DNA of 64,000 bases from Armatimonadota bacterium (lineage in GTDB: Bacteria > Armatimonadota > UBA5829 > DTLH01). Each line of letters starts with the position of its first letter. Position 1 is the stretch's first letter. The position numbers and the translations under genes are program-made. Location of the stretch: NCBI GenBank assembly GCA_039680575.1, contig JBDKSP010000021.1, forward strand, positions 13,239 to 77,238, given 5' to 3'. Below, piece by piece: positions 3,942-28,571 of the stretch. The notes under the pieces were generated by a model. It had not been told where the DNA came from. It saw nothing but the letters and a program-made list of their open reading frames with translations, and searched no databases.

Positions 3942-3955
3942 GGGAGTGTTTACTG

Positions 3956-5267: not shown

Positions 5268-5451
5268 GGTAAGAGTTCACTCTTGCAAGAATTATATATC
5301 ACCCTGAGCAACCAGCACGTCATCATGGATAGAAGCACGTCACCCTGAACTTGATTCAGGGTCCACTTTCTTCCTGGATGCTGAGTCAAGCTCAGCATGA
5401 CGTTGTGATAATTCAGCATGGTGTTGTACTCATCAACTCTGAACTATTACC
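5268..5451. mobile_element. MITE-like palindromic repeat, copy A
   Basis: Near-identical to 25910-26091 and the reverse complement of 15164-15363, 18536-18643 and 28303-28571. Imperfect 18-bp TIRs (ggtaagagttcactcttg / caactctgaactattacc). Nested palindromes ccctgaa..ttcaggg and gctgagtcaagctcagc. Confidence 0.7.
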
Positions 5452-5523
5452 TGCATTGACAGACGATAAAATATCGGCTATATTGCAATGGTATTGCAAT
5501 ATAGCCGAAGGTGATGGTTTATT

Positions 5524-6747
5524 ATGTATCTATCTCGAACACTGGAAAACTTCGCCAAGGCAGTAGCAGGGCAGTTTCCAGTTCTGCTTGTCACGGGTGC
5601 ACGGCAGGTCGGCAAAACGACGTTTCTTCAACACCTGAGAGAGCAGGAGCGCACTTATGTTTCCTTGGATGATCCATTGGTATTGGATCTAGCTAAAAGA
5701 GAGCCCGCTTTGTTCTTCCAGCGGTTTCGTCCTCCACTATTGATCGATGAAATACAATACGCACCGGAACTCTTGCCTTACATAAAGATGGAAGTGGATA
5801 GCATACAGCAGCCAAATCTTTTCTGGATCACTGGTTCACAGCAGTTTCACTTGATGAAAGGTGTATCAGAATCTCTCGCCGGTCGTGTAGCTATTGTGCA
5901 GTTGCTGGGTTTTTCCAGACGGGAGATGATGGGCCAAAGCGCTGAATCGCAGCCATTCAGCTCTACGCCGTCTGACATAGCCGAAAGAGAGAAGAGCGGA
6001 GGTGTCCTTGGACTGCGCGAGCTTTACAGCTCGATCTGGAGGGGATCATTTCCGGCAATCACCCTTAATCCCCAAATGGACAGGAACCTGTTCTACGCGT
6101 CCTATATTCAGACATATCTGCAGCGAGATGTAAGGGATCTATCAAGGGTTGGAGACGAAATGGCGTTCCTGCGCTTCCTTCGGATCGCCGCCGCACGAAC
6201 TGGACAGATGCTGAATCTGTCGGAATTTGCTCGCGATGCCGATATTGCCGTCAATACGGCGAAGACTTGGCTTTCTATTCTCCAGACATCAGGTATCGTA
6301 TACTTGCTGGAGCCATACCATACAAATCTAAGCAAGCGAATCATAAAAGCCCCGAAGCTATATTTTCTAGACACCGGATTAGCGTCGTACCTTACCGAAT
6401 GGTCGAGTCCAGAGACCCTTGAGGCAGGCGCAATGTCGGGTGCGATTCTAGAGACCTGGATAATTGCAGAGTTGTTGAAGGGTTACTGGCACAATGGTCG
6501 GCAGGCACCTTTCTACTATTACCGGGACAAAGATAAGAAGGAAATAGACCTGCTGATAGTTCAAGATGGGATCATCCGCCCATTTGAGATTAAGAAAACC
6601 TCCTCGCCTTCCGTTGCCGATGTCCGTGCATTCAGTACGCTTGAGAAAATCGGCCTAACGGTAGGACCGGGTGGTGTAATATGCCTTGCTCAGCAATCAC
6701 TTCCGATTACGAAGTCAGCGACAGTGATTCCGGTAGGGACGATGTGA
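5524..6747 (+). CDS. AAA+ ATPase of the DUF4143 family
   Basis: Walker A GARQVGKTT. Overall architecture matches the archaeal-ATPase-like AAA_14/DUF4143 proteins. Confidence 0.65.
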   Translation: MYLSRTLENFAKAVAGQFPVLLVTGARQVGKTTFLQHLREQERTYVSLDDPLVLDLAKREPALFFQRFRPPLLIDEIQYAPELLPYIKMEVDSIQQPNLFWITGSQQFHLMKGVSESLAGRVAIVQLLGFSRREMMGQSAESQPFSSTPSDIAEREKSGGVLGLRELYSSIWRGSFPAITLNPQMDRNLFYASYIQTYLQRDVRDLSRVGDEMAFLRFLRIAAARTGQMLNLSEFARDADIAVNTAKTWLSILQTSGIVYLLEPYHTNLSKRIIKAPKLYFLDTGLASYLTEWSSPETLEAGAMSGAILETWIIAELLKGYWHNGRQAPFYYYRDKDKKEIDLLIVQDGIIRPFEIKKTSSPSVADVRAFSTLEKIGLTVGPGGVICLAQQSLPITKSATVIPVGTM

Positions 6748-6812
6748 AGGAAACTGACATCCGACAGCTATTCCTGATATAATCATACACCACATTTGGG
6801 GAGAACCGGACA

Positions 6813-7652
6813 TTGCTATTCAACAGACGAAAAAGACGATTCATAACGCGAAGCCGTATAGTGATTGTCCTGCTATTACTTGCGGCTGTCCTTCATGTTT
6901 ATGCACGGAAAATAGAGCCGCGTTGGATACAGGTGACACATTACGATGTGGAGCTTAATGGGTTGCCGAATTCGCTCGATGGCCTCAAAGTGGTTCAGCT
7001 CAGTGATACACATAGAAGCTGCAAAACCCCTGACTATATCATCAAGAAAGCTGTAAAGTTAGCCAACAGCGAATCTCCCGATATAATCGTCATAACCGGG
7101 GATTTTATCAACAAAGGTATCGAAAATGCGAAGCCCTGCGCGGAAATGCTGTCAAAATTGAAAGCGCCAAAGGGCATATATGGGGTGATGGGCAACCATG
7201 ACTGCTGGTACGGAGCGGCTGATGTGACTCGTGCGCTCGAATCTAAGGGGATTCACGTGCTGACCAACAAAAATCGCCAAGTAGCGCCCGGATTATACAT
7301 AATCGGGATAGATGATGTCTGGTCAGGACATCCTGATGTTAATCGCGCATGGTCCGGCGTTGATGAAAAAGCCGGTCAGATACTTCTCTCTCATTCACCG
7401 CTTGCCATGCCTGTCTTCAAAGATAGAAACTGTCTTGCGCTGACCGGTCATACTCATGGCGGGCAGTACACAATCCCGTTTATTCCCAGAAACAGGCTGC
7501 CGGGGCTAAGAGGCTCGCCCTACATAAGCGGATGGTACCGGGAAGGCAATGTTCAGATGTATGTGAACAGGGGAATTGGCATGGCTGTCGTACCCGTTCG
7601 TTTCCTATGCAGGCCGGAGGTGACCGTCTTCACGTTGCGGAGCAGAAAATGA
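6813..7652 (+). CDS. metallophosphoesterase (calcineurin-like), membrane-anchored
   Basis: N-terminal TM helix. Motifs LSDTH, GDFINKG, GNHD and GHTHGGQ of calcineurin-like phosphoesterases. Confidence 0.7.
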   Translation: MLFNRRKRRFITRSRIVIVLLLLAAVLHVYARKIEPRWIQVTHYDVELNGLPNSLDGLKVVQLSDTHRSCKTPDYIIKKAVKLANSESPDIIVITGDFINKGIENAKPCAEMLSKLKAPKGIYGVMGNHDCWYGAADVTRALESKGIHVLTNKNRQVAPGLYIIGIDDVWSGHPDVNRAWSGVDEKAGQILLSHSPLAMPVFKDRNCLALTGHTHGGQYTIPFIPRNRLPGLRGSPYISGWYREGNVQMYVNRGIGMAVVPVRFLCRPEVTVFTLRSRK

Positions 7653-7723
7653 AAAAGAGATCTGCTTGATGTTTTACCGGAAGTGTGGTACGCTTTCCCG
7701 TTGTTTATGGAGAGCAGTGCAAA

Positions 7724-9058
7724 ATGCCGTTATTTGATGATCAGGCAGACAAGATTGATTCAGGTGCGCCGCTTGCAGCAAGGATGCGTCCGAGGACTCT
7801 GGATGAATTTCTGGGACAGGAGCATATACTCGGCTCGGACAAGCTGCTCAGGCGCGCCATAGAGCGTGATGAGCTTACTTCCGTTATATTCTGGGGTCCT
7901 CCCGGCTGTGGGAAGAGCACCTTGGCTGGTATTATTGCAAATACGAGCCAGTCAGTGTTTGAAAACTTCAGCGCGGTCATATCGGGGATCGCAGATGTCA
8001 GAAAAGCCGTAGCAAAAGCAGATGAACGCCGCAAAACCTACGGGCAGAAGACGATTTTATTCGTCGATGAAATACATCGCTTCAACAAAGCCCAGCAGGA
8101 TGCGTTTTTGCCGCATGTGGAAAGCGGCACTGTGGTTTTGATCGGTGCGACTACGGAAAACCCCTATTTTGAGGTCAACTCACCGCTTATCTCGCGTTCA
8201 CGCATATTCAAGTTCGAGCCACTTACTAATAATAGCATCAAAGAGATCATATCAACCGCCATTTTGGACCCCGAAAGAGGGTTCGGAAGCCTGAATGTGG
8301 AACTCGATCAGGATGCGCTCGATCATATTGTGAATGTGGCTGCTGGGGACGCCAGAAACGCGTTGAACGCGCTTGAACTTGCGGTTATGACGACACCTCC
8401 TGATGAGGCCGGCGTGCGGCAGGTAACTTTACAAATTGCTGAGGAAGCTATACAGCAGAGAGTGTTGAACTACGACAAAAATGGGGATAACCATTACGAT
8501 ACGATCTCTGCATTTATAAAATCGATGAGAGGCTCCGACCCGGACGCAGCCCTTTACTGGCTTGCACGGATGTTGCATGTGGGCGAAGATCCGAGGTTCA
8601 TCGCCAGGAGGATAGTCATTCAATCCGCGGAAGATGTAGGCAACGCAGACCCGATGGCGCTTGTAGTTGCTACCGCGGCTGCTCAGGCGGTTGAATATGT
8701 CGGTATGCCGGAAGCTAGAATACCGCTGGCGCAGGCCGCGATTTATCTGGCCTGCGCGCCGAAGAGCAATGCAAGCTATCTGGGGATCAGCCGGGCTATG
8801 AAGGATGCCGCTGAGAGGCGCCCGGCTCCGGTCCCGGTGCATTTGCGTGATGCGGGCTATCCGGGAGCAAAAAAAATCGGGCATGGCAAGGGCTACAAGT
8901 ATCCTCATGATTTTCCAGGCGGATACGCTCCTCAGGAATACGTTCCTGACGATGCTAAAAGCGGCAGATATTATGAACCGACGGAAAGAGGCCATGAAGC
9001 AAAGTTCAAGAAGCGGCTTGAGGCAATAAGAAAAGGTGCGGAGGACGTCGAGGAGTAA
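7724..9058 (+). CDS. rarA: replication-associated recombination protein A (RarA/MgsA AAA+ ATPase)
   Basis: Walker [12 protein letters not shown], Walker [11 protein letters not shown]-terminal MgsA helical domain ([16 protein letters not shown]). GGAGAG RBS 10 nt before the ATG at 7724. The longer ORF begins at 7685. Confidence 0.85.
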
Positions 9059-10218
9059 TGAACAATCGAGTAGCTGTAGCCATGAGCGGCGGAGTCGATA
9101 GTTCCGTTGCCGCGGCGATCCTTGTCGAGCAGGGGTATGAAGTAATCGGTGTTACAATGTGTCTGCTTAAGGGGTCTTTGGAACGGTCTACAGGTGCATG
9201 CTGCACACCGGAGTCCGTTGAAGATGCACGAAGAGTCGCCGCAAAGCTCGGAATCAGCCATTACGTGATCCCGATGCAGGAACAGTTCGATAATTTTGTT
9301 ATAGATAATTTCATAGAGGAATACAAACGGGGGCACACCCCGAACCCATGCATAAGGTGCAACAGGTTTCTGAAATTCGATGTATTGATTGAATGGGCAA
9401 AATCAGTCGGAGCGGACAGGATTGCAACCGGGCATTACGCGGGAGTCAGATACGACGAAGAGTGCGGCAGATGGCTTCTTTTGCGCGGCAAGGACAGGTC
9501 GAAGGACCAGGCTTACGCACTCTATGCGCTTACGCAGCCGCAGCTGGAGAGGGTCATCTTTCCGCTTGGCGGAATGAAGAAAGTTGAGACGAGAAAGCGT
9601 GCAGCTGAGCTCGGGTTGAGAGTGGCGGACAAGCCGGACAGCCAGGAGATTTGCTTTGTACCGGGCAGAGATTATCCGGCTTTTCTGAGGGCTGTCGCTC
9701 CCGAGTTGGTCCAGCCGGGTCCAGTTGTCGATTTGGACGGTAAAGTGCTTGGCCAGCACCAGGGTATAGCTTTTTATACTGTCGGGCAGCGTAAGCGGCT
9801 TGGTATCAGTTCTCACGAACCAAGGTATGTAGTGAGGGTGGACAGTGAGACAAATACGGTTGTAGTCGGGGCGAATGAGGACCTTTTTGCTGGAACGCTT
9901 GTAGCAAAAGATCTGAACCTGATCTCGATTGAGAGCCTGCCTGATACCCTTGCCGTTACAGCGAAGATCAGATATAATACGAAAGATTCGCCGGCAGTCG
10001 TTCGCGGGCTGTTCAAAAATATGGCCGAGGTTGTATTCGAACAACCGCAAAGAGCAGTAACTCCGGGACAGGCTGTCGTGATGTATCAGGGCGAAATCGT
10101 GGTCGGAGGCGGGACTATCGCCGACGAACGGGAAGCCGAGGAGATAATCTCCCTTACGAAAGCACGAAAGGGAGAAAACACGAAAGAAGAGACAGGAAAC
10201 AGGGAACAAAGGGCGTAA
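9058..10218 (+). CDS. mnmA: tRNA 2-thiouridine(34) synthase MnmA
   Basis: PP-loop AMSGGVDSS. Catalytic Cys motifs NPCIRCN and EICF. Length 386 aa. Confidence 0.85.
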   Translation: MNNRVAVAMSGGVDSSVAAAILVEQGYEVIGVTMCLLKGSLERSTGACCTPESVEDARRVAAKLGISHYVIPMQEQFDNFVIDNFIEEYKRGHTPNPCIRCNRFLKFDVLIEWAKSVGADRIATGHYAGVRYDEECGRWLLLRGKDRSKDQAYALYALTQPQLERVIFPLGGMKKVETRKRAAELGLRVADKPDSQEICFVPGRDYPAFLRAVAPELVQPGPVVDLDGKVLGQHQGIAFYTVGQRKRLGISSHEPRYVVRVDSETNTVVVGANEDLFAGTLVAKDLNLISIESLPDTLAVTAKIRYNTKDSPAVVRGLFKNMAEVVFEQPQRAVTPGQAVVMYQGEIVVGGGTIADEREAEEIISLTKARKGENTKEETGNREQRA

Positions 10219-10408
10219 GAGATAATTTATGGAGAATATGCATCGGCAAGCAGTCCGAAGCAGAAGTCTCCACCAATCCGAGAGGCTGGCTTCGGCGCAA
10301 AAGACACGCACGGAAGCATACCTATAGAGTTTCAGGAGATAAAGTAACAGCCTTACAGCTATATAAACAGTTCTCTGATATAGCTTTATCTGTTAATTTT
10401 ACACTTAC

Positions 10409-10484
10409 ACCTGAAACTCTTCCGGAGGATTTTCGGCAACAGCCAAAATATGATTGGCCGTTAATTAATCAGCCGAAAATCTAT
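10409..10484. repeat. fragment of the MITE-like repeat family (shares the palindromic module of copy E, interrupted by a 37-bp insert)
   Basis: cctgaaactcttccggaggattttcggc ... gccgaaaatc is the reverse complement of the 28390-28460 module of copy E. Confidence 0.5.
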
Positions 10485-10517
10485 AGATTCTGAATCCTGT
10501 TTTGGAGGCATTGGCGA

Positions 10518-10937
10518 GTGCTGCAAGGTTTGTTAGTTGCCGCTGTAGTAATAAACAGCCTGGTCCTGCTGGCTGTGGTCATAGCAGGGATTCTGATTGT
10601 CAAAAGGATCAGCAGGGCTGCAGATGCAGCGGAAGATGCAATAAATAATGTTCGTGATGAGCTGCCGACAACAATTAAAACAGCGAACGATACGCTGCGG
10701 GCAGCTCAAAGCACGCTAAAGTCAGTAGACAGGCTGGCAGACAGGACCACTGAGGAGCTTTACAGGGTAGATGATATTCTGGCATCAATAGACAAGCTGC
10801 TTAGAGGTGTGACTGTCGCAGATGCCGCTGTAAAGGTGGTCAAAAGTACACATTCGACAGCCGCTGGTGTACTGGCTGGAATCAAGGAAGCTCTGCGGGT
10901 TTTTCATTCATCAGCAGGGAAAACAAAGGAGGATTAG
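10518..10937 (+). CDS. DUF948/YtxG-like membrane-anchored coiled-coil stress protein
   Basis: GTG start 9 nt after GGAGG. Single N-terminal TM helix followed by a coiled coil. Size and architecture match Bacillus ytxG-type general stress proteins. Confidence 0.5.
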   Translation: MLQGLLVAAVVINSLVLLAVVIAGILIVKRISRAADAAEDAINNVRDELPTTIKTANDTLRAAQSTLKSVDRLADRTTEELYRVDDILASIDKLLRGVTVADAAVKVVKSTHSTAAGVLAGIKEALRVFHSSAGKTKED

Positions 10938-10941
10938 GGAT

Positions 10942-11208
10942 ATGAGTAATAACGAAGAGAAAGGTGTTGCTCTGAACTTTCTGGCAGGAGTTGGTATAGG
11001 TGCAATAATCGGTGCAGGAATAGCGCTTTTGTTTGCACCCAAATCAGGTACTGAGACTCGCGATGATATCAAAAACGCGATGCATGAACTGTCAAAATCG
11101 ACGGAAGACCTTCGAAATAAAAGCGCTGAGATAGTCGAATCAGCGAAAGCCAGAGTCCAGGAGACCATAAATAGAAGACGGATAGGTGAAGAGTCTGAAG
11201 AGGCCTAA
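10942..11208 (+). CDS. YtxH-like general stress protein
   Basis: AAAGGAGG RBS. N-terminal motif GAGIALLFAPKSGTETRDDI is the hallmark of the YtxH family. Confidence 0.65.
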   Translation: MSNNEEKGVALNFLAGVGIGAIIGAGIALLFAPKSGTETRDDIKNAMHELSKSTEDLRNKSAEIVESAKARVQETINRRRIGEESEEA

Positions 11209-11366
11209 TCCAAAATCCGAAAACTCCTCAAAATGGAACGTTTCTATTTGGGATATACGTAGGCTTTCAGGGGAATGATTAGAGTAGGATTCACTACCGT
11301 GCTGTGGTCCATTTCAGGGCAGAATGGAGTGATATCGAAGTGAATTTCAGTATAGATACATACAAT

Positions 11367-11693
11367 ATGGAAAGCGGTGTGCCGGTCATAAAACTGACCG
11401 GTGAAGTCGACGTCTATACCGCGCCGCAGCTAAAGCAGCAGATGATAGGAATGCTCGAAGCAGGCGCGAATCAGATTCTCATTGATCTTACGGAAGTCGA
11501 GTACTTCGACAGCACAGCTCTTGGTGTGCTGATCGGGGGCCTCAAGCGGATGAGGGAACGTGACGGTAACCTATCGCTGATATGCCCGAACCCAAGGATC
11601 CGCCGGGTTTTCGAGATAACCGGGCTGGACAAGATTTTTGACATCTACAACAGCGCAGATGAAGCAAAAATCGCGATCCAACTGGTACCGTGA
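11367..11693 (+). CDS. anti-sigma factor antagonist (STAS domain, RsbV/SpoIIAA-like)
   Basis: STAS fold signature LTGEVDVYTAPQL...DLTEVEYFDSTALGVLIG, with the phosphorylatable Ser in DST. The ORF is open from 11304; the ATG at 11367 is preferred. Confidence 0.8.
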   Translation: MESGVPVIKLTGEVDVYTAPQLKQQMIGMLEAGANQILIDLTEVEYFDSTALGVLIGGLKRMRERDGNLSLICPNPRIRRVFEITGLDKIFDIYNSADEAKIAIQLVP

Positions 11694-11766
11694 TCACAAT
11701 GAGAATCGGTATAACCGGCGGAGCATTACTCCCGTTGGTTTCAGTAAGAGAAGGGAGCGTGGTTCG

Positions 11767-12183
11767 GTGGATGCTCAAAGTGAGCCCGCTGTTGTAGAGC
11801 TCAGGATACCTTGCAGGCCCGAATACGTCGGCGTTGCAAGACTGGCATTACTTGGCGTTGCAAGCAGGATGAAATTCTCATACGACCAGGTAGAAGATGT
11901 CAGGCTCGCTGTCGGAGAAGCCTGCACGACCTCGGTCGAGTGGGCCACAAAGAATAATCGGGCAGATACTGATATCGTTGTCAGAAGCAGTATCGCTGAT
12001 ACGAAACTGACAGTAGATATCATTGACAGTTCAGGTGAGCGGCGAGAGGCGCCCGCTGATCAGGAGAACGATAACGAGCCTGAAAGCCTTGGCGCGCTGC
12101 TGATAACGCTGCTCGTTGACGAGGTTACAGTGACACCAATTAACGGTGGCACACATGTCAAAATGGTTAAATATGCGGGTTAA
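11767..12183 (+). CDS. anti-sigma factor serine kinase (RsbW/SpoIIAB-like GHKL ATPase)
   Basis: HATPase_c_2-like block VRLAVGEACTTSVEWA. Position between the antagonist and the sigma gene. The start is uncertain: the ORF is open from 11638, and an in-frame GTG at 11767 is used here. Confidence 0.65.
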   Translation: MDAQSEPAVVELRIPCRPEYVGVARLALLGVASRMKFSYDQVEDVRLAVGEACTTSVEWATKNNRADTDIVVRSSIADTKLTVDIIDSSGERREAPADQENDNEPESLGALLITLLVDEVTVTPINGGTHVKMVKYAG

Positions 12184-12187
12184 TGCT

Positions 12188-12961
12188 ATGGCAACGCGAA
12201 GAAAGGGTGGCGTTGCGGGATGGACAGACGAAGAGACTGAGCAATTGTTTCGTCGTTATACCAGGACGCGAGACCCTCAAATTCGCGATCAGCTTGTCAT
12301 AATGCATCAGAACCTGGTGCGTTTTTTGGCGGGCAAGTTTGCGAACAGGGGTGAGGCACTTGAGGATCTCGTTCAGGTCGGCGTCATCGGGCTTATAAAT
12401 GCGATTGACAGGTTCGATCCTGAGCGGGGAACCAAGTTCTCGACCTATGCGACTCCAACAATTGTAGGTGAGATCCGACGCCATTTCCGCGACAAAGCAT
12501 GGAGCTTGAAAGTACCCCGCCGCCTGCAGGAGCTGAACCTTGCTGCAAATAAGGCTGCGGAGAGGTTAAGTCAATCACTCGGTCGCCCACCAACCATCCA
12601 GGATATTGCAAATGAAGTAGGCGCGACGGAAGAAGAGACGCTCGAAGCAATAGAACTTGGAAACGCCTACGACACGGTCTCTCTGGACAGCAAGCTGTCT
12701 CATGAGGGGGAATCCGCACCGCTTACTCTTGCGGAATTCGTAGGTGGGATGGATGGGTCGCTGCAGAACATAGATACTTACGGTGACCTGAAACAGGCGA
12801 TGGAGTGCCTTGAACCAAGAGAAAAGGCGATTATTTACTATCGCTTCTTTAAGGATATGTCTCAGACTGAGGTCGCGCGGAGACTGAACATCTCACAGAT
12901 GCATGTTTCCAGACTTCAGCAAAAAGCGCTGAAACGGTTGAAAGACCTGCTCAACGAATAA
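12188..12961 (+). CDS. RNA polymerase sigma factor, group 3 (SigB/SigF-like)
   Basis: Region 2 LVQVGVIGLINAIDRFDPERGTKFSTYATPTIVGEIRRHFRD, and a region 4 helix-turn-helix (MSQTEVARRLNISQMHVSRL). The ATG lies 4 nt after the stop of the kinase gene. Confidence 0.85.
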   Translation: MATRRKGGVAGWTDEETEQLFRRYTRTRDPQIRDQLVIMHQNLVRFLAGKFANRGEALEDLVQVGVIGLINAIDRFDPERGTKFSTYATPTIVGEIRRHFRDKAWSLKVPRRLQELNLAANKAAERLSQSLGRPPTIQDIANEVGATEEETLEAIELGNAYDTVSLDSKLSHEGESAPLTLAEFVGGMDGSLQNIDTYGDLKQAMECLEPREKAIIYYRFFKDMSQTEVARRLNISQMHVSRLQQKALKRLKDLLNE

Positions 12962-13026
12962 AAGAATGCATTCATCAAGGCGGAGGGGCTTACCATTGCC
13001 CTCCGCCATCACTGGTATCTCACACT

Positions 13027-14175
13027 ATGATTACAAACAGTTGGGTTCGTATTACCGCATGGGCTGCAGGGCTTCTGGCAGTCGCAGCAGCGCTTCACAT
13101 CATCCAATTATCATACCTGCCGGTCATCAAACCTGTGCTGGATGTACTGTTGCCGATTTCCATTGCTTTTGTACTGGCGCTACTTCTCGATTCTACTATC
13201 GACAGGATACAAAAACGGGGTATTTCCCGCGGCGCGGCCGTAGGGATTGTAGCGCTTGCCTTTGTGGCTATAATCGTTATATCGGCTGTTTTCCTGATAC
13301 CGGCTTTGATCGATCAGGCGAAAGAACTGGGGTTGAATGCTCCCGGATACACCCGCGATGCAGGAGTATATATAAACAGGTTCATGTCGGAGCATCGCAG
13401 TCTGCTGGAGCGTGTGCACCTGCCGACCACTATGGAAGGTATATCGACTCGTTATGGAAGCCAGATCGAAAAAGTGGCCGCAGCATCGTTTTCACGGGTC
13501 GGAACATGGTTGGGAGGACTCTTATCCAGCATCGTATGGCTGGTAATTATCCCTATTGTCACGATTTTCCTTTTGATCGATATCGATAAGATCAAAGCGA
13601 AGGCGCTTCTTCTTGCGCCGGAACGCCACAGGGAGCGGACAGCCTCGCTGGCAAGCTCCGTAGGACGTGTATTTGGAGCCTACATCCGGGGGCTCTTAAC
13701 TGTATCAGTTCTGTATGGAATAGCCTGCGGCGTTGTTATCTGGGCTTTGGGTGTGCCATATGCGGTGATTCTGGGAGCTGCGGCAGGCGTTTTGTCGCTG
13801 GTTCCTTATATAGGCACGATAAGCACTGTAATTCTAGTCGGCACCGTCGCAATGGTCGCAAGCGGGAACCCTGTGATGGGTATATGGGCTGCTCTCGCCA
13901 TTCTTGTGATGAACCAGGCCTTCGATAATGCAGTTACCCCCAAGATCGTCGGCAAGGCTGTAGGTCTTCACCCGGCACTTTCGATAATATCACTCCTAAT
14001 CGGTGCGAGGATGTTCGGGTTTATCGGCATGATAATCTCTGTTCCGGTCGCTGCGAGCATACAGATCCTTGTTTTGGAGTTCTACCCGCCGCTGAGGGGA
14101 CCGGAAGAGGAAGAAAAGCCCAAAAAACCGTCTCTTTTCACAAGATTCGGAAACCTCTTGAAGAAGCAGAAGTAA
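13027..14175 (+). CDS. AI-2E family (PerM/YhhT-like) transporter
   Basis: About 8 TM helices and a length of 382 aa, with the conserved AI-2E layout. A low-complexity acidic/basic C-terminal tail. Confidence 0.6.
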   Translation: MITNSWVRITAWAAGLLAVAAALHIIQLSYLPVIKPVLDVLLPISIAFVLALLLDSTIDRIQKRGISRGAAVGIVALAFVAIIVISAVFLIPALIDQAKELGLNAPGYTRDAGVYINRFMSEHRSLLERVHLPTTMEGISTRYGSQIEKVAAASFSRVGTWLGGLLSSIVWLVIIPIVTIFLLIDIDKIKAKALLLAPERHRERTASLASSVGRVFGAYIRGLLTVSVLYGIACGVVIWALGVPYAVILGAAAGVLSLVPYIGTISTVILVGTVAMVASGNPVMGIWAALAILVMNQAFDNAVTPKIVGKAVGLHPALSIISLLIGARMFGFIGMIISVPVAASIQILVLEFYPPLRGPEEEEKPKKPSLFTRFGNLLKKQK

Positions 14176-14352
14176 CTAATATACGATGGAGTATAATTTG
14201 ATTATATGTGTTCTGACAGAAAATATATAACTATATCTTGAATAGTAAGGTTGAATGCGATATACTTCGGTAGAGCCCGTGGCAGTATCTGAGGCTGAAT
14301 ATCAGTTTGAGGTAGTGCGCACGGGCATTTTCTCTGAAGGGGGGAAATAAAA

Positions 14353-15114
14353 GTGGGAGAAATAGTGGAATTTATAAATCCAGAGCCAAGTGAGGTTGCA
14401 GGCAAACAGGCCAGAACTGCAGTTAAGCGTAATGGGCCAAAATGGGAGATAGATGCACGTGAAAAACTGAAAGCTTCGATAAAACGATTCAATAAGGCCC
14501 TTGTTGATTTAAAGGATCGAGATGCAAATGAAGCAGATACTCGATTATTCGTTACTGATGTATTATGTGATGCTCTTGGGTTAGATAAATATACAGAATT
14601 ATGCACAGAGTATCGTGTAAAGGGTGAGTATGTAGACTATGGCATCCGTTTAGAAAATGATATGATTGCATTTGTTGAAGTTAAGCGGATAAATACGAAA
14701 CTAGGGACAAAGCATCTTAGGCAAGTTCAGAATTATGCGGTAAATGAGGGAGTCGAGTGGATTATTCTTACTAACGGAGCGCAGTGGCAGGTATATCACT
14801 TAAGTGGTGGGCTTCCACTCATCACTGATCTTGCAATAGAGATAGATTTGCTTGGCGATATTCCAATGGGGCAGAAGGTAAACACGATGTTTTATCTTAC
14901 ACGTGATGCCCTAAAACGCGGGAAGCTTATGGATCTTTGGCAGGAAAAACGAGTTACTGCTCCTAATTCTTTAGCGCGGATATTACTGTCTGATTCAATT
15001 GTTATTGCCGTTAGAAAAGAGCTGAAAAAGGCAACTGGCTATAATATAGATCCCACCGAAATAGTTCGCTTGGTTAAGGAGACGTGCTTAAAGCCAGAGT
15101 GTTTTGAGAAGTAA
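14353..15114 (+). CDS. stand-alone HsdR-N/Mrr-like PD-(D/E)xK nuclease-fold protein
   Basis: Motifs NEADTRLFVTDVL, VDYGI and FVEVKR, followed by YAVNEGVEWIILTNGAQWQVY, match the N-terminal nuclease domain of type I restriction R subunits. The gene and its 5' spacer are markedly AT-rich relative to the flanks. Confidence 0.6.
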   Translation: MGEIVEFINPEPSEVAGKQARTAVKRNGPKWEIDAREKLKASIKRFNKALVDLKDRDANEADTRLFVTDVLCDALGLDKYTELCTEYRVKGEYVDYGIRLENDMIAFVEVKRINTKLGTKHLRQVQNYAVNEGVEWIILTNGAQWQVYHLSGGLPLITDLAIEIDLLGDIPMGQKVNTMFYLTRDALKRGKLMDLWQEKRVTAPNSLARILLSDSIVIAVRKELKKATGYNIDPTEIVRLVKETCLKPECFEK

Positions 15115-15115
15115 G

Positions 15116-15141
15116 AAAAAGGGCCGGGCTTCAACCCGGCC
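15116..15141 (-). terminator. rho-independent terminator (hairpin ggccgggcttcaacccggcc plus T5 on the minus strand), downstream of aspS and MITE copy B
   Basis: Perfect 7-bp GC stem. A ttttt run follows on the minus strand. A similar hairpin recurs at 57790-57809. Confidence 0.5.
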
Positions 15142-15163
15142 AATAATCATCGATTTCTGTATG

Positions 15164-15363
15164 CGTAAGAGTTCAGAGTTGATGAGTATAATATCATGCT
15201 GAACTACCACAACGTCATTCCGAGCTTGACTCGGAATCCAGGAAAAACTGGACCCTGAATCAAGTTCAGGGTGACGTGTTTGCCGTCCAGGGTGACGTCC
15301 TTCCATAATGACGAGTTAGTTGTTCAGGGTAATATATAATTCTTACAAGAGTGAACTATTACC
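15164..15363. mobile_element. MITE-like palindromic repeat, copy B (inverted relative to copy A)
   Basis: TIRs gtaagagttcagagttg / caagagtgaactattac. Internal gctgagcttgactcgg... and ccctgaatcaagttcaggg palindromes. Confidence 0.7.
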
Positions 15364-15448
15364 TGTATGCTATGGAAGCAACATTGTATAATATTGCAGG
15401 CTTATGTTGAACAATCATTCCCACGGCCTTCAGTATGTAAAACTAACG

Positions 15449-17224
15449 CTACTCTTCTTCCTCCAAAACCTGTATGTGCAGTTCTTGGAGCTGCGCGTCA
15501 TCTACCGGTGCGGGCGCGGCAGTCATCGGATCGATTCCTGTCGATGTCTTCGGGAAGGCTATGACCTCGCGGATGCTGTCGTCGTCCGTGAAGAGCGTCA
15601 CTGTCCGGTCGATACCTGATGCGAACCCACCGTGCGGCGGCGCGCCATACTCGAAAGCTTCCAGCATGTGCCCGAACCGCTCCTGGGCGGCTTCTTCGCT
15701 GTAGTTCATAAGCTCGAAGACCTTTGTCTGGACATCGCGCCTGTGTATTCTTATGCTGCCTGAACCAAGCTCGAACCCGTTACAGACCAAATCATAACAC
15801 CATGCTCGGACTCTCGCCGGGTCGGTTTCGAGATACTGCATATCGTCCTCGTGCGGCGATGTAAACGGGTGGTGCATAGCGTCCCAGCGCTTCCCAGCCT
15901 CATCCCACTCGACCAGCGGGAAGTCTACTACCCAGCAGAACGCCATTTCATCTTTGTTCGCAAGTCCAAGGCGTTTACCCATCTCTGCTCTCATACGCCC
16001 AAGCGCGGAAGCGACCACTTCCGGCTTATCCGCAACAATTGCAAGAAGATCGCCGGTCTTTGCATGTGCTCGCTCGATGATGGCAGCCATCTGTTCATCA
16101 GTCAGGAATTTGGCAATAGAAGATTTGACGCCGTCTTCGAGAACTGCAATGGTAACCAGTCCCTTTGCTCCGAATGTCTTAGCGAACTGGGTAAGATCGT
16201 CTATTTCTTTTCTGCTGTAACCGGCGCAGCCAGGGAGAGTAATACCCTTAACCTGCCCGCCGGACTCCGCAGTGTTCTTGAAGACCTGGAAATCGGTCGT
16301 TCCGGCAATATCAGTAAGGTTATAGAGCTCCATTCCGAACCTGAGGTCTGGCTTGTCCGAGCCGTAGCGCTCCATTACCTCATTATAGGAATATCTCGGG
16401 AACGGTACAGGGAACTTGATCTTCTTATCTGAGAGCTTTTCGACCATCTGAGAATGGAGATCATCCATGAGCTCGAAAACGTCTTCCTGCTTGATGAAAC
16501 TCATCTCCAGGTCGAGTTGTGTGAACTCAGGCTGGCGGTCGGCTCGTGGGTCCTCGTCCCTGAAACATCTGGCTATCTGGAAATAGCGTTCGAAACCCGC
16601 AACCATCAGAAGCTGCTTGAGCTGCTGAGGAGACTGCGGAAGCGCGTAGAACGAACCAGGATAAAGCCTTGCGGGCACAAGATAGTCTCTTGCGCCTTCC
16701 GGTGTGCTCTTGATGAGAACTGGAGTCTCGACCTCGATAAAATTGTGCTCGTCCATGAAGTCTCGAATGAGCTTCACGATCTTGTGACGGAGGAATATCC
16801 TATGCTGCATATTGGGTCGGCGCAGGTCGAGATAACGGTACTTCATACGGATCATCTCGTCCACGTCGATCTGGTCTGAGATAGGGAAGGGCGGCGTCTT
16901 GGCGGTATTAAGCACTTCGATAGCGGACACTTCTACCTCGACTTCGCCGGTCTTCAGATGCGGGTTCTCGGTCCCTTCGGGGCGCAGTCGTATCTTGCCG
17001 GTAATCTCCAGAACGTATTCGCCTCGCACTCCTTCAGCGACTTTGAATGGGTCAGGAGTCTTTACCGGGTCGATGACCGTTTGGATGATTCCCGTCCTGT
17101 CGCGAAGGTCGATGAATATCAAGCCGCCGTGGTCACGAATCCGCTGAACCCAGCCGTTAAGCCGGATTTCCTGACCTGTCTGATCGGCTGTAACCTCGCC
17201 GCACCACACTGTTCTTTTTAGCAT
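15449..17224 (-). CDS. aspS: aspartate--tRNA ligase
   Basis: N-terminal OB-fold anticodon-binding domain, the bacterial insertion domain, class II motifs (FRDEDPRADRQPEFTQLD, GGFASGIDR). Length 591 aa. Confidence 0.9.
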   Translation of the reverse strand: MLKRTVWCGEVTADQTGQEIRLNGWVQRIRDHGGLIFIDLRDRTGIIQTVIDPVKTPDPFKVAEGVRGEYVLEITGKIRLRPEGTENPHLKTGEVEVEVSAIEVLNTAKTPPFPISDQIDVDEMIRMKYRYLDLRRPNMQHRIFLRHKIVKLIRDFMDEHNFIEVETPVLIKSTPEGARDYLVPARLYPGSFYALPQSPQQLKQLLMVAGFERYFQIARCFRDEDPRADRQPEFTQLDLEMSFIKQEDVFELMDDLHSQMVEKLSDKKIKFPVPFPRYSYNEVMERYGSDKPDLRFGMELYNLTDIAGTTDFQVFKNTAESGGQVKGITLPGCAGYSRKEIDDLTQFAKTFGAKGLVTIAVLEDGVKSSIAKFLTDEQMAAIIERAHAKTGDLLAIVADKPEVVASALGRMRAEMGKRLGLANKDEMAFCWVVDFPLVEWDEAGKRWDAMHHPFTSPHEDDMQYLETDPARVRAWCYDLVCNGFELGSGSIRIHRRDVQTKVFELMNYSEEAAQERFGHMLEAFEYGAPPHGGFASGIDRTVTLFTDDDSIREVIAFPKTSTGIDPMTAAPAPVDDAQLQELHIQVLEEEE

Positions 17225-18471
17225 ACTGCCTCCACAACTTTATCGATAGGGACTTCCCGCTGCTCTTTTGCAAGCATATCTCTCACGGATACTACGCCCT
17301 TTTTGATCTCATCTTCACCGATTATCAATACGAACTTCGCGCCGAGTTTGTCAGCAAGTTTCATCTGTGACTTGAGGCTCCTTCCGGTAAAATCGGTTTC
17401 TGCTGATATACCATTATCTCTCAGGTCATAAATAAGCCTGATTGCCGCTTCACGCGCTTCGTTTCCCATTACAGCGAGGAAAACACTCGGTCTGGTATCC
17501 ACTTCAAGGTCGATCCCGAGCTTTTCGAGTGTCAGGAGGAGCCTCTCCATACCCAGCCCGAAACCGAGCGATGGAGTAGGGGAGCCGCCCATTTCTTCGA
17601 TCATCATATCGTACCGCCCGCCGCCGCAAATGGTGTTTTGCGCGCCGAGGTGAGGAGTCTGGAACTCGAATATCGTCCTCGTGTAGTAGTCGAGCCCTCG
17701 AACAAGGTGCGGATCTAGCACATAAGGGATATTCAGCGCTGTCAGATAGCTCTTTACCGTCTCAAAGTGCGTCTTGCAGTCGTCGCAGATTATATCCACA
17801 ATCACAGGAGCATCAGCGAGGAGTTCCCTGCAGTGCTCATCCTTGCAATCGAGCATTCTAAGCGGGTTTTGTTCGTATCTCACCTGACATGTCGGACAGA
17901 GCTCTTTTACAAAAGGTGCTGCGAACTTGCGGAGCGCCTCTCGATATGTCGGGCGGTCTTCCGGGCCGCCGATTGAGTTTAGCCGCAGTTCTACGCCCGT
18001 AATTCCGAGGTCTTTGAAGAACTTCCACGCAAGAGAGATCACCTCGACATCGGCTGACGGGTCAGCAGCGCCGATCATCTCAAGCCCCATCTGGTTGTGC
18101 TCTCTGTAGCGCCCGGATTGAGGCCGTTCATAGCGGAAAATCCGGCTGAAATAGTAAAGTTTCGATACAGGTAGTTCTGTACCAAGATTGTGTTCCAGAT
18201 AAGCCCGTACCGTGGGAGGCGTACCTTCCGGTTTAAGCGTCAGGCTTCGTCCGCCCTGATCGGTAAAAGTATACATCTGCTTTGTGACGATATCCGTCGT
18301 CTTACCCGTGTGGCGAGTAAAAAGCTCAGTCTCTTCGAATGTTGGAGTCCGTATCTCCCTGAAGTCGAAAAGCCTGCATATTTCCCTGAATTTATTCTCA
18401 ATAAACTGCCAACGCGGGGTTGCAGACGGTAAGACATCCTGCGTTCCCCGCGGCGCATTGAACCTGGTCAT
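17218..18471 (-). CDS. hisS: histidine--tRNA ligase
   Basis: Class II aaRS motifs and HisS-specific regions (RGTQDVLP, YFSRIFRYERPQSGRYREHNQ). GGAGGAG RBS ahead of the internal Met. The ORF extends to 18504. Overlaps the aspS start by 7 nt. Confidence 0.9.
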   Translation of the reverse strand: MTRFNAPRGTQDVLPSATPRWQFIENKFREICRLFDFREIRTPTFEETELFTRHTGKTTDIVTKQMYTFTDQGGRSLTLKPEGTPPTVRAYLEHNLGTELPVSKLYYFSRIFRYERPQSGRYREHNQMGLEMIGAADPSADVEVISLAWKFFKDLGITGVELRLNSIGGPEDRPTYREALRKFAAPFVKELCPTCQVRYEQNPLRMLDCKDEHCRELLADAPVIVDIICDDCKTHFETVKSYLTALNIPYVLDPHLVRGLDYYTRTIFEFQTPHLGAQNTICGGGRYDMMIEEMGGSPTPSLGFGLGMERLLLTLEKLGIDLEVDTRPSVFLAVMGNEAREAAIRLIYDLRDNGISAETDFTGRSLKSQMKLADKLGAKFVLIIGEDEIKKGVVSVRDMLAKEQREVPIDKVVEAVC

Positions 18472-18535
18472 TTTATAATAGCTCCTCCACATGATATTAG
18501 CCAAAATGCCTTATTGTGTCAAACTGCAGGAGTTT

Positions 18536-18643
18536 GTAAAGAGCTCAGGGTTGATGAGAATAGCATCATGCTGGATTATCACAACGTCATGCTGAGCTTG
18601 ACTCAGCATCCAGGAAGAAAATGGACCCTGAATCAAGTTCAAA
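18536..18643. mobile_element. MITE-like repeat, truncated copy C (same orientation as copy B)
   Basis: Shares about 100 bp with copies B and E (gttgatgag...catcatgctg...caacgtcatgctgagcttgactcagcat...ggaccctgaatcaagttca). The distal half is absent. Confidence 0.6.
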
Positions 18644-21659: not shown

Positions 21660-21678
21660 AGATTGGTATCTTATTGCC

Positions 21679-23610: not shown

Positions 23611-23631
23611 ATTACCTCTTATACCTTATAC

Positions 23632-24624: not shown

Positions 24625-24933
24625 CTTCCTGACACCTCCGAAAGGTTTTCAGCTATAATGGTTATAAGGCTGGTTATTGACTGAATAGCCGGATAATTGG
24701 TAAGCTCTGTTGAACTTGAATTCGATTTCCAATGGAGAATATCCTCCATACAGACAAAAATATACTGTTTGTAGTAATCAGTGTGTCATCAACAAGATAA
24801 ATAGCAACAGGGTCAACAATATATCCTTGAAAAGTACCCGATATAACACAGCAAATATCCGCGGAATATTGTCTCATTTATATAAGGGATTCCAGCGAAG
24901 GATATCCCAAACAAATGCAAGGAGGAGAGTGCA

Positions 24934-25836
24934 ATGCGATCATTTGTAATCGCGCTTGTCGTTGTCTGCCTGGTAGTTCTCTCTATCCCGCTGTATGCGC
25001 AGGCTACCACGCAGAATAGCGGCAATGAGGAGAAGGCGAAAGAATTATATCTCGCTGGGGAGAAATCTTACAAAGAAGGTAAACTGGAAGAAGCAATCGT
25101 AACCTGGAATAAGTCTCTCGATCTGAGTCCGAATAGTGAGGAAACTAAGAATTCCGTTGCAAAGGCAAAAGACGAGCTCTACAAAAATACAATGGAATTT
25201 TGCAATGATCCCAATCAAAAGGATCTTGTGACTGCGTTTGTCAATCTGATCAGTATACAGGCATTGATCCCGGAGAAGGCAACTGAGTTTCAGGAAAAAG
25301 CGAAGGCGGTTGTCGGTAGGTTCGATAATGATCAGAAAAGGGCAACCATCTATTATCAGCAGTCGGTAAAGAAGACTAATGAGGGAGATTATAACGTTGC
25401 TGCTCAGTATGCGACTATTTCCAAAATATACGCTCCTGACTCGGTTGCTGTCGGTAAGCTGATCGGTAAAATAAATGAAATCAGGGAAAAGAAAGCAACA
25501 GCGAATCCACCAAGTCAGCCGCAACCGGCTCAATCGTCTCATGTAGGCATTGGTAACGGTAAACCGAACTTGGTAATATTCTATGCAGACTGGTGCGCGG
25601 CACATGCAAAAATGTCTCCGATGCTCAAGGAACTGCAAGATCAATACAAAGACAAGGTGAATATCCTCTTTGTCGATGTCGATAATCAGTCGAATAAGGA
25701 CATCCTGAAAAAGGACCCTATTAAAGGTGTTCCGCTTCAGGTTCTCTACGACAAGGATCAAAAGGAAGTGTTTAGCAACCTGGGTGAGATAACGAAGGAT
25801 CAACTGGTGGCCGAGTTGAACAAAGTAGCCGGGTAA
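24934..25836 (+). CDS. secreted TPR-like / thioredoxin-fold protein with a degenerate active site (WCAAHAKM instead of WCGPCKM)
   Basis: Signal peptide. The C-terminal 110 aa align to thioredoxin (NLVIFYADWC...KVNILFVDVD). The resolving Cys is absent. Confidence 0.55.
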   Translation: MRSFVIALVVVCLVVLSIPLYAQATTQNSGNEEKAKELYLAGEKSYKEGKLEEAIVTWNKSLDLSPNSEETKNSVAKAKDELYKNTMEFCNDPNQKDLVTAFVNLISIQALIPEKATEFQEKAKAVVGRFDNDQKRATIYYQQSVKKTNEGDYNVAAQYATISKIYAPDSVAVGKLIGKINEIREKKATANPPSQPQPAQSSHVGIGNGKPNLVIFYADWCAAHAKMSPMLKELQDQYKDKVNILFVDVDNQSNKDILKKDPIKGVPLQVLYDKDQKEVFSNLGEITKDQLVAELNKVAG

Positions 25837-25868
25837 TCAACCCCTGAATTTATATATGTACAAAACAG

Positions 25869-25900
25869 GAGCCTCCCATAATCTTCAGGGAGGCTCTTTT
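25869..25900 (+). terminator. rho-independent terminator
   Basis: Hairpin gagcctccc-N10-gggaggctc followed by tttt. Confidence 0.7.
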
Positions 25901-25909
25901 GCAACAGTC

Positions 25910-26091
25910 CACTCTTGCAAAAATTATATATCACCCTGAGCAACCAGCACGTCACCCTTGAACTAAGGAGTTTTGGTATACCTGAAACTCTTCCTGGATG
26001 CTGAGTCAAGCTCAGCATGACGTTGTGGGCATTCCGAATGACGTAGTGTTCGTTCAGCATAATGCTATATTCATCAATTCTGAACGCTTAC
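25910..26091. mobile_element. MITE-like palindromic repeat, copy D (same orientation as copy A)
   Basis: About 85% identical to copy A across 180 bp. Lacks the first 10 bp of the left TIR. Confidence 0.7.
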
Positions 26092-26102
26092 GCTCTTTTT
26101 TA

Positions 26103-27512
26103 TTAACTCATTCTTCGCCAGATGGTCCCCTCAGGCCGGTCTTCGATTGTGATCCCAGCGGCGGACAGTTCATTTCGAATCTCATCAGCCCTGGCCCAGT
26201 TTTTCTCTTTTCTGGCCTTTTCTCTCTCGGTAATAAGAGCTGCAAACTCCGGATCCAGTTCCGTTTCTTGTGCTGATGCCGCTGATTCGTGCAACTTTAA
26301 CCCGAAAACTTTATCAAAGTCATACAATGCGTCGAGTACTCCGAACTCCTGCCGGGTGTTGGCTTCCTTTATCATCTCCCATGTGAGCGCGATAGCTCGC
26401 GGGACGTTGAGGTCATCACTTATTGCTTCTTTGAACCGTTCGCGATACTCGCTGACCCAGGGTTCTTCTGTTCCTTCTGCCCGGCTGGCGAGGTCAACGA
26501 ATGCTTTCAGTCGATTATAACCTGCCTGTGCAGCATCGAGTGACTCCCAGGTGAAGTTCAGTTTAGACCGGTAATGCACCTGCAGACATAGATACCTGTA
26601 TGCAAGAGGATCGTATTTCCGGTCTATAAGCGACTGAAGAGTGAGGAACCCACTGGCGGATTTTGCCATCTTTTCGCCGCCGCCGACTATCAGAAACTCG
26701 CCATGAAGCCAGTAACGAGCGAATTGCTTACCGGTCGATGCTTCGCTCTGTGCTATCTCGTTCGTATGGTGGACCGGTATATGGTCGATTCCCCCCGTGT
26801 GGATGTCCAGTGTCTCGCCCAGGTAATGCATAGACATCGCGGAGCACTCTATATGCCAGCCGGGGAAGCCCATGCCCCAGGGAGAATCCCACTGCATCAG
26901 ATGGTTCTCGAACCTTCCAACAGCTTTGAACCAGAGTGCGAAATCGGCAGGATTACGCTTATCCTTATCTTCCTGCACTTCGGCTCTGGCAGCGGTTATC
27001 TTTTCTTCCAGTGATTGACCGGCAAGTGCCGTATAGGTCGGGAACTTGGTAACATCGAAATAGACTGCCTGGTCCGTCTCGTATGTATAACCCCGATCCT
27101 GAAGCTGTTTTACCAGGTCGATCATCATCTGTATATGCTCAGTCGCGCGGGCAACTACAGTAGGCCGCGCGATATTCAATTTCTCGGTGTCTTTGAAGAA
27201 CGCGTCTTCATAGAACCTGGCAATGTCCCAGATGGATTTTCCCTCTCGGCGGGCTCCGGCTTCCATCTTGTCTTCGCCGATGTCATCATCGGAGGTAAGA
27301 TGGCCTACATCGGTTACGTTCATCACATGCTTTACTTCGTAGCCTTCATGTTCGAAAGTGCGCCGCAGAATATCGGCGAAGATGTAAGTGCGCAGGTTGC
27401 CGATATGCGCGTAGTTATAGACGGTGGGACCACAGGAGTAAATTCCCGCTTTCCCCGGTTTGAGAGGTATGAATTCTTCTTTCTTGCGTGTAAGCGAGTT
27501 ATACAGTAGCAT
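26103..27512 (-). CDS. cysS: cysteine--tRNA ligase
   Basis: Class I motifs HIGN (HIGNLRTY) and KMAKS. Zinc-binding Cys residues. Length 469 aa. Confidence 0.9.
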
Positions 27513-28191
27513 CGGTTATATCAGGTTTCTCCACAGGTTCCGACCGTTCATTCTGTCCGGTCTCCATTTGTGACATGCGATTGTCAAGCTGGTCAAGCCT
27601 TCGCTGGAGCGACTGGATCAGTTCACCTTCAGGATCGAGTCCGCGTCCATGCGTCAGCGGTTCAACTGTTACCTTTTTGCCGTTTTGGACGGCTATTCTA
27701 CCAGGAACACCGACGACGGTGGAATCCGCAGGTACATCCTTAAGCACAACAGCGTTAGCTCCGATCCTGGCGTTATCGCCTATGGTTATTGCGCCGAGGA
27801 CTTTAGCTCCGCATGCAATGACTACGTTGTTCCCAAGGGTGGGGTGGCGCTTCTTCTTTTCCAGGCTGACACCTCCAAGAGTAACCCCATGATAAATAAG
27901 GCAATTCTCCCCGATCTCAGCGGTCTCTCCGATGACGACACCCATTCCATGGTCTATAAAGAACCCTTTGCCTATCTCGGCGCCGGGATGAATCTCTATT
28001 CCGGTAAAGAAACGGTTTATATATGAGATTATTCGAGCGAGAGTCTGCAGGCGCAGCTTCCACAACCGGTGGGCGACACGATGCCAGAAAATCGCATTTA
28101 TCCCTGGATAGGATAAAACTTCCAGCCAGTTGCGCGCAGCAGGATCGCACCTAAATGCAGCTCTCCAATCACTTAGAAATGTTTCGAACAT
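27499..28191 (-). CDS. cysE: serine O-acetyltransferase
   Basis: N-terminal SATase helical domain ([11 protein letters not shown]...[11 protein letters not shown]) and hexapeptide-repeat beta-helix. Sits directly upstream of cysS, a common pairing. Confidence 0.85.
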
Positions 28192-28302
28192 TAATTAATA
28201 TCCCAGCTGAGTAATATCAAAAATAACGACAACGATGTTGTTGCCGTTATTAATAACAACACTCGAATATAACACGGACTGAGTGAAAGTTCAAGATAAA
28301 AT

Positions 28303-28571
28303 GTAAGACTTCACTGCTGATGAGTATAACATCATGATGAACCACCACAACGTCATGCTGAGCTTGACTCAGCATACAGGAAGAAAATGGACCCTGAATC
28401 TATGGATTTTCGGCTATAGCCGAAAATCTTCCGGGGAGAGTTTCAGGTAATACCTGAAACTCCTTAGTTCAGGGTGACGTGTTGGTTATTCAGGGTGACG
28501 TCCTTCCATCTATGGTGATGTGTTGGTTGTACAATTTGATGTAGGATCTCTCATTAAGAGTGAACTGTTAC
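28303..28571. mobile_element. MITE-like palindromic repeat, copy E (copy-B orientation, with an extra approximately 70-bp palindromic module)
   Basis: The same TIRs and core as copy B, plus the perfect palindromes ttttcggcta/tagccgaaaa and gagtttcaggta-a-tacctgaaactc. Lies in the divergent cysE / GH130 promoter region. TATAAT at 28584. Confidence 0.7.

Follow-up and report, generated by a model that had tools for sequence, protein, structure and literature searches.

Probable IS66/ISBst12-type miniature inverted-repeat elements with a well-conserved central double hairpin in intergenic spacers of an Armatimonadota genome

The intergenic spacers of a 64-kb stretch of an Armatimonadota genome (contig JBDKSP010000021.1, positions 13,239 to 77,238 of the forward strand; all 64,000 nucleotides of it are referred to as the window) contain one family of short repeats, comprising four full copies of 182–269 bp (A, B, D and E) and one half copy (C). 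These repeats are very probably miniature transposons bounded by inverted repeats (MITEs), that is, non-autonomous DNA transposons, of the IS66/ISBst12 type, moved in trans by a transposase that recognizes their ends of ~22 bp. Such a transposase is presumably present in this genome, or was formerly, and moved these copies. On this reading the repeats are a known kind of selfish DNA, with a central double hairpin that is unusually well conserved.

Whole-window repeat finding, alignment and an nhmmer model all recovered the same five copies. Repeat finding gave direct and inverted matches of 44–103 nt among positions 5268–5450, 15165–15363, 18539–18641, 25898–26047 and 28303–28543, and these five stretches could be aligned as a single family after three of them had been reverse-complemented. 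The window contained six matches to a 17-nt pattern representing the ends (0.14 expected) and five to a 25-nt pattern representing the core (0.00 expected), which excludes chance as the source of the family. The family had been proposed in a first-pass annotation of the sequence and is real, with coordinates that were off by 1–9 nt; the claim that copies occur in both orientations and always between genes holds for all of them. The genes on either side are divergent for three copies (A, C and E) and convergent for two (B and D), so that promoter spacers and terminator spacers are occupied alike. The copies are non-coding, and the ORFs that run across them are spurious frames extending into the neighbouring genes. 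A high density of six copies in 64 kb had also been claimed; there are five, all within 23 kb and none in the remaining 41 kb, and the cluster is locally dense.

All four full copies are bounded by GTAA...TTAC and possess the terminal inverted repeats GTAAnAGTTCA...TGAACTnTTAC, in which 14 of the first 17 positions match in A and B. The ends of copy A are GTAAGAGTTCACTCTTG and CAACTCTGAACTATTAC. Variants found at the ends were GTAAGAG, GTAATAG, GTAACAG and, at the right end of copy D, GTAAGCG, the canonical IS66 start. Terminal inverted repeats had been recognized previously, but the outer G and C that were counted with them in copy A belong to the target duplication, the true ends being GTAAGAG... 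and ...CTATTAC. Perfect 8-bp direct repeats flank all four full copies (Table 1), and their sequences are unrelated to one another. Four perfect 8-mers are beyond chance and indicate insertion at a staggered cut by a DDE-type transposase; being 8 bp long and varied in sequence, they are not the TA duplications of Correia- or RUP-type elements. The gene upstream of copy D has a terminator hairpin whose T-tail was the target, so this copy inserted into a pre-existing terminator. Most copies outside the window were also flanked by duplications. Among 11 near-full copies in the metagenome-assembled genome (MAG) of a sister species described below, the duplications matched at 8/8 positions in three (L007, L008 and L022) and at 7/8 in four (L004, L017, L019 and L021), whilst the 11 scorable MITEs from metagenomes had matches of 8/8 (six), 7/8 (two) and 6/8 (one) or no duplication (two). 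In the mechanism that we propose, an IS66-family DDE transposase supplied in trans would bind the ~22-bp terminal inverted repeats (GTAAnAGTTCA[G/C]...TGATGAG), insertion would take place at a cut staggered by 8 bp, repair would produce the 8-bp direct duplication, and insertions would persist in intergenic spacers only.

Table 1. Positions in the window of the repeat copies, their target-site duplications and the related hairpin elements
Feature	Position	Strand	Description	Neighbouring genes
Copy A	5269-5450	+	182 bp, full length; hairpin 1 5343-5361, hairpin 2 5378-5398	nucleotidyltransferase gene and AAA_14/DUF4143 ATPase gene, divergent
Copy B	15165-15362	-	198 bp, full length	HsdR_N-like ORF and aspS, convergent
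Copy C	18536-18643	-	half element: right end (GTAAAGAGCTCAGGGTTGATGAG) up to truncation in hairpin 1	hisS and BadF/BcrA-type ATPase gene, divergent
Copy D	25901-26091	+	191 bp, internally rearranged	TPR-thioredoxin gene and cysS, convergent
Copy E	28303-28571	-	269 bp, full length, holds nested module	hexapeptide transferase (cysE-like) gene and GH130 gene, divergent
Target-site duplication of A	5261-5268, again 5451-5458		CTGCATTG	
Target-site duplication of B	15157-15164, again 15363-15370		CTGTATGC	
Target-site duplication of D	25893-25900, again 26092-26099		GCTCTTTT; 8/8 with right end set at 26091	
Target-site duplication of E	28295-28302, again 28572-28579		GATAAAAT	
66-nt two-hairpin module	28401-28466		TATGGATTTTCGGCTATAGCCGAAAATC...GAGTTTCAGGTAATACCTGAAACTCCTTA, nested in hairpin-1 loop of copy E	
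Second MITE-like element	10323-10486		164 bp, ends TATAGAG.../...TCTATAG	

Elements of the IS66 family have inverted repeats of 20–30 bp which start with GTAAGCG, and 8-bp direct repeats (PMC11946415), and in the ISBst12 group ISDge4 combines one 449-aa ORF with the ends GTAACTGCTCAGCA and a direct repeat of 8 bp (PMC12898284). The GTAA ends and 8-bp duplications of the family match this published signature, including the start GTAAGCG seen in copy D, and the ISDge4 end closely resembles the ~22-bp imperfect inverted repeats of the MITE. The MITE differs from the IS66/ISBst12 elements in having no transposase, in its size of 182–269 bp and in an interior that is unrelated to the insertion sequences (ISs) recovered in this work.

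These ISs were found by scanning JGI metagenomes for the exact right end of the MITE, GTAANAGTTCAGAGTTGATGAG, which yielded 20 loci. Fifteen were short MITEs (123, 138 or 153 bp) that shared the two ends and had internal hairpins of the same kind, and four were ISs, namely L034 (1505 bp), L039 (1774 bp), L043 (1573 bp) and L036 (partial), in all of which the MITE-type sequence of 22–23 nt formed both terminal repeats. Each of the four contained one ORF of 461–522 aa with matches to the Pfam families DDE_Tnp_IS66 (PF03050; E 1e-35 to 5e-43) and zf-IS66. The 22-bp MITE end GTAAGAGTTCAGAGTTGATGAG was identical to the ends of the metagenomic elements of 1.5–1.8 kb that encode this single IS66-family transposase, and the right end of copy B matched the left end of L039 at 22/22 positions. 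The transposases of these loci were ~40 % identical to one another; the ends were nonetheless conserved. A further candidate parent IS of ~1.5 kb with MITE ends (L049) proved to be a MITE of the same superfamily, on a metagenome contig, interrupted by an IS4-family element (L049:79-1484) with a 409-aa ORF matching DDE_Tnp_1 and DUF4372.

A profile search with the three metagenomic transposases identified P0277, a protein from an Armatimonadota MAG with an annotation as IS66 transposase. The locus of P0277, L057 (JBDKUO010000069.1, GC 50.7 %), contained a 1440-bp element at 3876–5315 with the left end GTAACAGCTCAGTCTTGATGAGTA, the right end GTAACAGCTCACTTTCGATGAGTA and one ORF encoding an IS66 transposase of 428 aa, flanked by the perfect 8-bp duplication CGTATTCT. 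The two ends of the MITE show a CAG/CAC asymmetry (...TCAG.. versus ...TCAC..), and so do those of this element. Relatives of the L057 transposase (L063–L069) provided more GTAA[G/C]AGCTCA ends, none of them from the samples of the window. Judged from their sequence, the MITE ends are of the type found in the IS66 family's single-ORF (ISBst12-like) branch. No IS66-derived MITE was described in the literature searched.

The target duplications, the inverted repeats kept across copies, genomes and metagenomes, and the autonomous relatives in metagenomes and in another Armatimonadota MAG, which have the same ends and encode IS66-family transposases, favour the MITE interpretation, one of two that the first-pass annotation had offered. 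The other, a REP-like or structured-RNA family, is not required to explain the copies; at most, it may still describe a property of the internal double hairpin.

Four of the loci with relatives of the L057 transposase (L066–L069) are Logan contigs of ~1.43–1.48 kb from four runs that hold an ISBst12-type element in circularly permuted form, and its right end meets its left end over a 7-nt spacer, TCTGCGT, in L066 and L067. From the sequence, this permutation could reflect the assembly of a multicopy repeat as a loop, or else an IS circle or a tandem junction.

The distribution of the family was narrow. An exact scan for the core (22 specified bases) in one genome per species, covering 185,579 species, gave matches in one species genome only, that of the congeneric Armatimonadota MAG 8_bin.138 (JBDKUN01), in 28 stretches. 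At least 28 matches to the core were thus present in this MAG over ~1.7 Mb of contigs, none of them overlapping the window. Its aspS orthologue had 95 % amino-acid identity to that of the window, and one of its regions (L051) was collinear with window positions 2439–18524 at 88.5 % DNA identity, which identifies it as a sister species. A protein labelled Armatimonadota at NCBI was 100 % identical to the CysS of the window. In the sister MAG the orthologous stretch of 21.8 kb was devoid of the family, so that only the lineage of the window has A, B and C, and insertion sites differed between the two genomes.

Relative to the sister species, three copies are placed at indels or at breaks of synteny. 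Copy A lies inside a 1.58-kb segment found only in the window (5186–6765) together with the AAA_14/DUF4143 ATPase gene, and copy B inside another of 1.3 kb (14139–15448) together with the HsdR_N-like ORF; these segments do not resemble composite transposons, as no terminal repeat was found on the far side of either gene. Copy C starts ~10 nt from the end of synteny upstream of hisS (window position 18526). The region upstream of hisS has been rearranged, being occupied by LplA in the sister MAG, by GH130 in a more distant relative (L053) and by the BadF-type ATPase in the window; GH130 adjoins hisS in L053, whereas in the window the two are 10 kb apart, with copy C at one edge of the interval and copy E at the other. 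The family may therefore mark, or help to cause, local rearrangement. Short-read contigs from the same strain (L001 and L054) stop inside B/C and D/E, as is expected of a multicopy repeat. Relatives retrieved via CysS (L055 and L056) were too diverged and were non-syntenic, and gave no empty sites.

It is extremely improbable that the copies are old, immobile and decaying intergenic repeats whose similarity has been maintained by recombination. The half copy C, the internally deleted copy D and the many remnants without terminal repeats in the sister MAG would fit such decay, but not the four perfect 8-bp duplications at unrelated targets, the insertion sites that differ between the sister genomes or the autonomous relatives with identical ends.

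The non-coding interior of the element forms one long imperfect palindrome, with folding z-scores of -4.4 for copy A (as DNA, a single long hairpin) and -4.6 for copy B (as RNA). From each end the order is a terminal repeat of ~22–26 nt, then zero to three 21-nt subterminal units (each composed of ACGTCA, 7 nt and ~8 nt) and then a central 71 nt. The first part of the centre reads ACGTCA-CCCTGAA-CTTGA-TTCAGGG-TCCA (hairpin 1), followed by a T-rich spacer, and the second part reads TGGA-T[G/T]C[T/C]GAG-TCAAG-CTC[A/G]G[C/A]A-TGACGTTGTG (hairpin 2), so that one hairpin unit (ACGTCA, 7-bp stem, CTTGA, stem) is present twice in inverted orientation. Both palindromes described in the first-pass annotation, CCCTGAA-CTTGA-TTCAGGG and (AT)GCTGAG-TCAAG-CTCAGC(AT), are found here. 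A census of stems, using the pattern GTCA, 7-nt stem, loop and perfect complement, returned CCCTGAA (20), TTCCGAG (17), TGCTGAG (14), TCCCGAA (seven) and TGCTGAA (four). Copy B has one additional subterminal unit of 21 nt and carries TTCCGAG/CTCGGAA as its hairpin-2 variant, copy C spans only positions 119–221 of the nhmmer model, and copy D has retained half of a nested module and lost the right arm of hairpin 1.

Smaller hairpin elements are nested within the family. The 66-nt module of copy E (Table 1) occupies a fixed position in the loop, between TC and G: hairpin 1 holds it there in copy E and in several MAG copies, and hairpin 2 does so in a copy in L026. The metagenome MITEs lengthen in 15-nt steps through a hairpin nested in either loop. 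The composite that includes the nested module had duplication-flanked copies in both species (copy E, and L004 at 7/8), which indicates that the composite still transposes as a unit. Positions 10409–10484, listed in the first-pass annotation as a fragment of the family, are part of the separate element at 10323–10486, which is the long form of the 66-nt module; the similarity that had been seen is explained by the short form nested in copy E. This second element is made of two hairpins (GAGTTTCAGG...CCTGAAACTC and GATTTTCGGC...GCCGAAAATC), has a 93 % identical copy in the sister MAG (L027:4654-4816) and is missing at the orthologous site of that MAG, where there are 27 nt compared with 223 nt here. 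Its ends may, on sequence grounds, be flanked by TA.

Several observations weigh against the interpretation of the repeats as IS66-type MITEs. A clean empty site was not obtained, since the segments around A and B also differ in L051 and copy C is at a synteny break. Neither the window nor the 28 sister-MAG loci (~220 kb) contained an IS66 transposase detectable by tblastn with IS66 transposases, and a scan of the same sequences for sites resembling the terminal inverted repeats, with a search for multicopy ORFs, yielded no parent IS. The hosts of the elements with the 22/22 end have GC contents of 56–64 %, compared with 49 % here; three of these high-GC IS copies had no duplication, and the host of L057 and the window share no DNA. 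Similarity between the MITE and the ISs ends after ~25 bp, so the MITE is no simple deletion derivative. Among 20 copies taken from both species, identity was 91–100 % in the 71-nt core, compared with 40–90 % for the terminal repeats and subterminal parts, the figure for the core being inflated by the retrieval of the MAG loci via an exact match inside it; the five window copies, chosen without a core match, showed the same trend of a core better conserved than the ends. In addition, ~17 core copies in the sister MAG were without IS66-type terminal repeats and lay next to heptamer-like runs and hairpin modules of other kinds (TGCTTCGGGAC...GTCCCGAAGCA). An over-conserved core and core copies without terminal repeats are not predicted for a purely selfish MITE.

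One alternative, which is compatible with the MITE interpretation and which we regard as unlikely, is that the unit that is moved or selected is the double hairpin of 69–71 nt (ACGTCA...TGACGT) rather than the element bounded by inverted repeats. It would be a REPIN-like doublet, spread by a REP-associated tyrosine (HUH) transposase (RAYT) or by gene conversion, that has invaded several backbones including the IS66-type MITE. Apart from the conservation of the core and its copies joined to other hairpin modules, the fact that both hairpins have other small hairpin modules nested at one shared place in the loop would be in keeping with this, as would the two inverted palindromic units, since REPINs, which Bertels and Rainey are said to have described in 2011, reportedly pair two palindromic units, one inverted relative to the other. 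Inverted repeats and an 8-bp duplication, which are not products of HUH transposition, are nevertheless present at every full copy in the window, and the duplication-flanked composites of both species show transposition of the whole unit. The minimal 123-bp metagenome MITEs contain inverted repeats and core only, so that the core looks ancestral to the MITE, and the inflated estimate of core conservation takes some weight from the argument. A phmmer search with E. coli RayT (E <= 10) detected no RAYT among 1285 ORFs (~330 kb), a weak negative, from a partial genome. A broader version of this idea can be offered as a tentative possibility, itself unlikely: the double hairpin could be a functional module (a selected binding site or structure) or an independent REPIN-like spreader that rides on IS66-type MITEs and other backbones, with its CTTGA/TCAAG loops as specific landing sites for smaller hairpin elements. 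If this were true, mobile palindromes would be nested at three levels in a barely studied phylum.

The strong folds raise a different possibility, namely that the copies are host-selected structures at the RNA level (bidirectional terminators, mRNA-stabilizing hairpins or small RNAs) which have been kept for their function. In 20 aligned cores 99.5 % of the cells were paired, with changes on both sides at three pairs, and the stem variants across the families are discrete and perfectly compensated. Hairpin 1 followed by CCAYTTTCTT had a terminator-like score in one orientation, for the consensus match only, and copies B and D lie between convergent genes. We consider this explanation highly unlikely, however. 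The changes on both sides represent only two to three events, and template switching can homogenize palindromes without selection; copies A, C and E are in divergent promoter spacers, and the orientation of the copies relative to their neighbours is inconsistent. No copies were present at the orthologous sites of a species with 88.5 % identity, which indicates that the neighbouring genes do not need them, and copy D was inserted into the tail of an existing terminator. In the whole window the Rfam gathering threshold was reached by two tRNAs only, and copy B gave nothing at E <= 1. The hairpins of these putative IS66-type MITEs presumably serve the element, for example in donor-end synapsis or in shielding neighbours from read-through, and not the host.

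The Correia elements of Neisseria, the RUP elements of Streptococcus pneumoniae and the ERIC/IRU elements are small, non-coding, intergenic, multicopy, self-complementary, bounded by inverted repeats and found in both orientations, and all these MITE traits are shared by the family described here. Those elements duplicate TA and are tied to IS630/Tc1-like or unknown transposases, whereas the present family has 8-bp duplications, IS66-type ends and a centre that is more conserved than the ends. The core, as an inverted pair of ~29-nt palindromic units, resembles REP/REPIN, BOX and BIME sequences, as does the mosaic of hairpin modules and heptamer runs in the genome. REPINs lack inverted repeats as well as target duplications, and they occur with a RAYT gene that is flanked by REPs; in contrast, the family has inverted repeats and duplications, and no RAYT was found in the sample searched. 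For Nostoc, Elhai et al. reportedly described in 2008 how small dispersed repeats lie nested within MITE-like sequences, and the present family likewise contains tiny palindromic modules inside other repeats, here in hairpin loops and in steps of 15 or 66 nt. The phylum and the sequences are different.

For annotation, the spacers concerned should be labelled as MITE insertions and not as regulatory RNAs. The copies explain why short-read assemblies of this lineage break beside aspS-hisS and cysS-cysE. For work on the single-ORF branch of IS66, which is poorly understood, the family also provides a clean non-autonomous substrate whose 22-bp ends are defined, whilst leaving the understanding of how MITEs work unchanged.

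Other repeats adjoin the MITE copies in both genomes as mosaic intergenic sequences composed of heptamer-like runs and hairpin modules. Tandem runs of the heptamer-like units AACAGGG, AAACAGG, ACGAAAGC and TCAGCYR were present at window positions 5186–5268 and 10140–10320 and in L002, L014, L016, L025 and L028, and further hairpin modules beside such runs were GCAAGCAGTCCGAAGC and the TGCTTCGGGAC...GTCCCGAAGCA module mentioned above. A third dispersed repeat at 60302–60467, between the convergent ORFs 59169–60269 and 60477–61004, contains the hairpins CCCTCTCCC-GTCAA-GGGAGAGGG and GGCCGGCACGGAGACCGGCC and was 89–97 % identical to sequences in the sister MAG (L009:183-246, L027:69-135, L005:5369-5398 and L026:7604-7637).

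A near-perfect palindrome with a 16-bp stem, TCGGCTATATTGCAAT-ACC-ATTGCAATATAGCCGA, is located at 5474–5508 directly upstream of the DUF4143 ATPase gene next to copy A and overlaps a sigma-70-like promoter match (11/12) at 5456–5484; by its appearance it looks like an operator. Neighbouring genes for tRNA-Arg(TCT) and tRNA-His(GTG) are present at 63285–63443.

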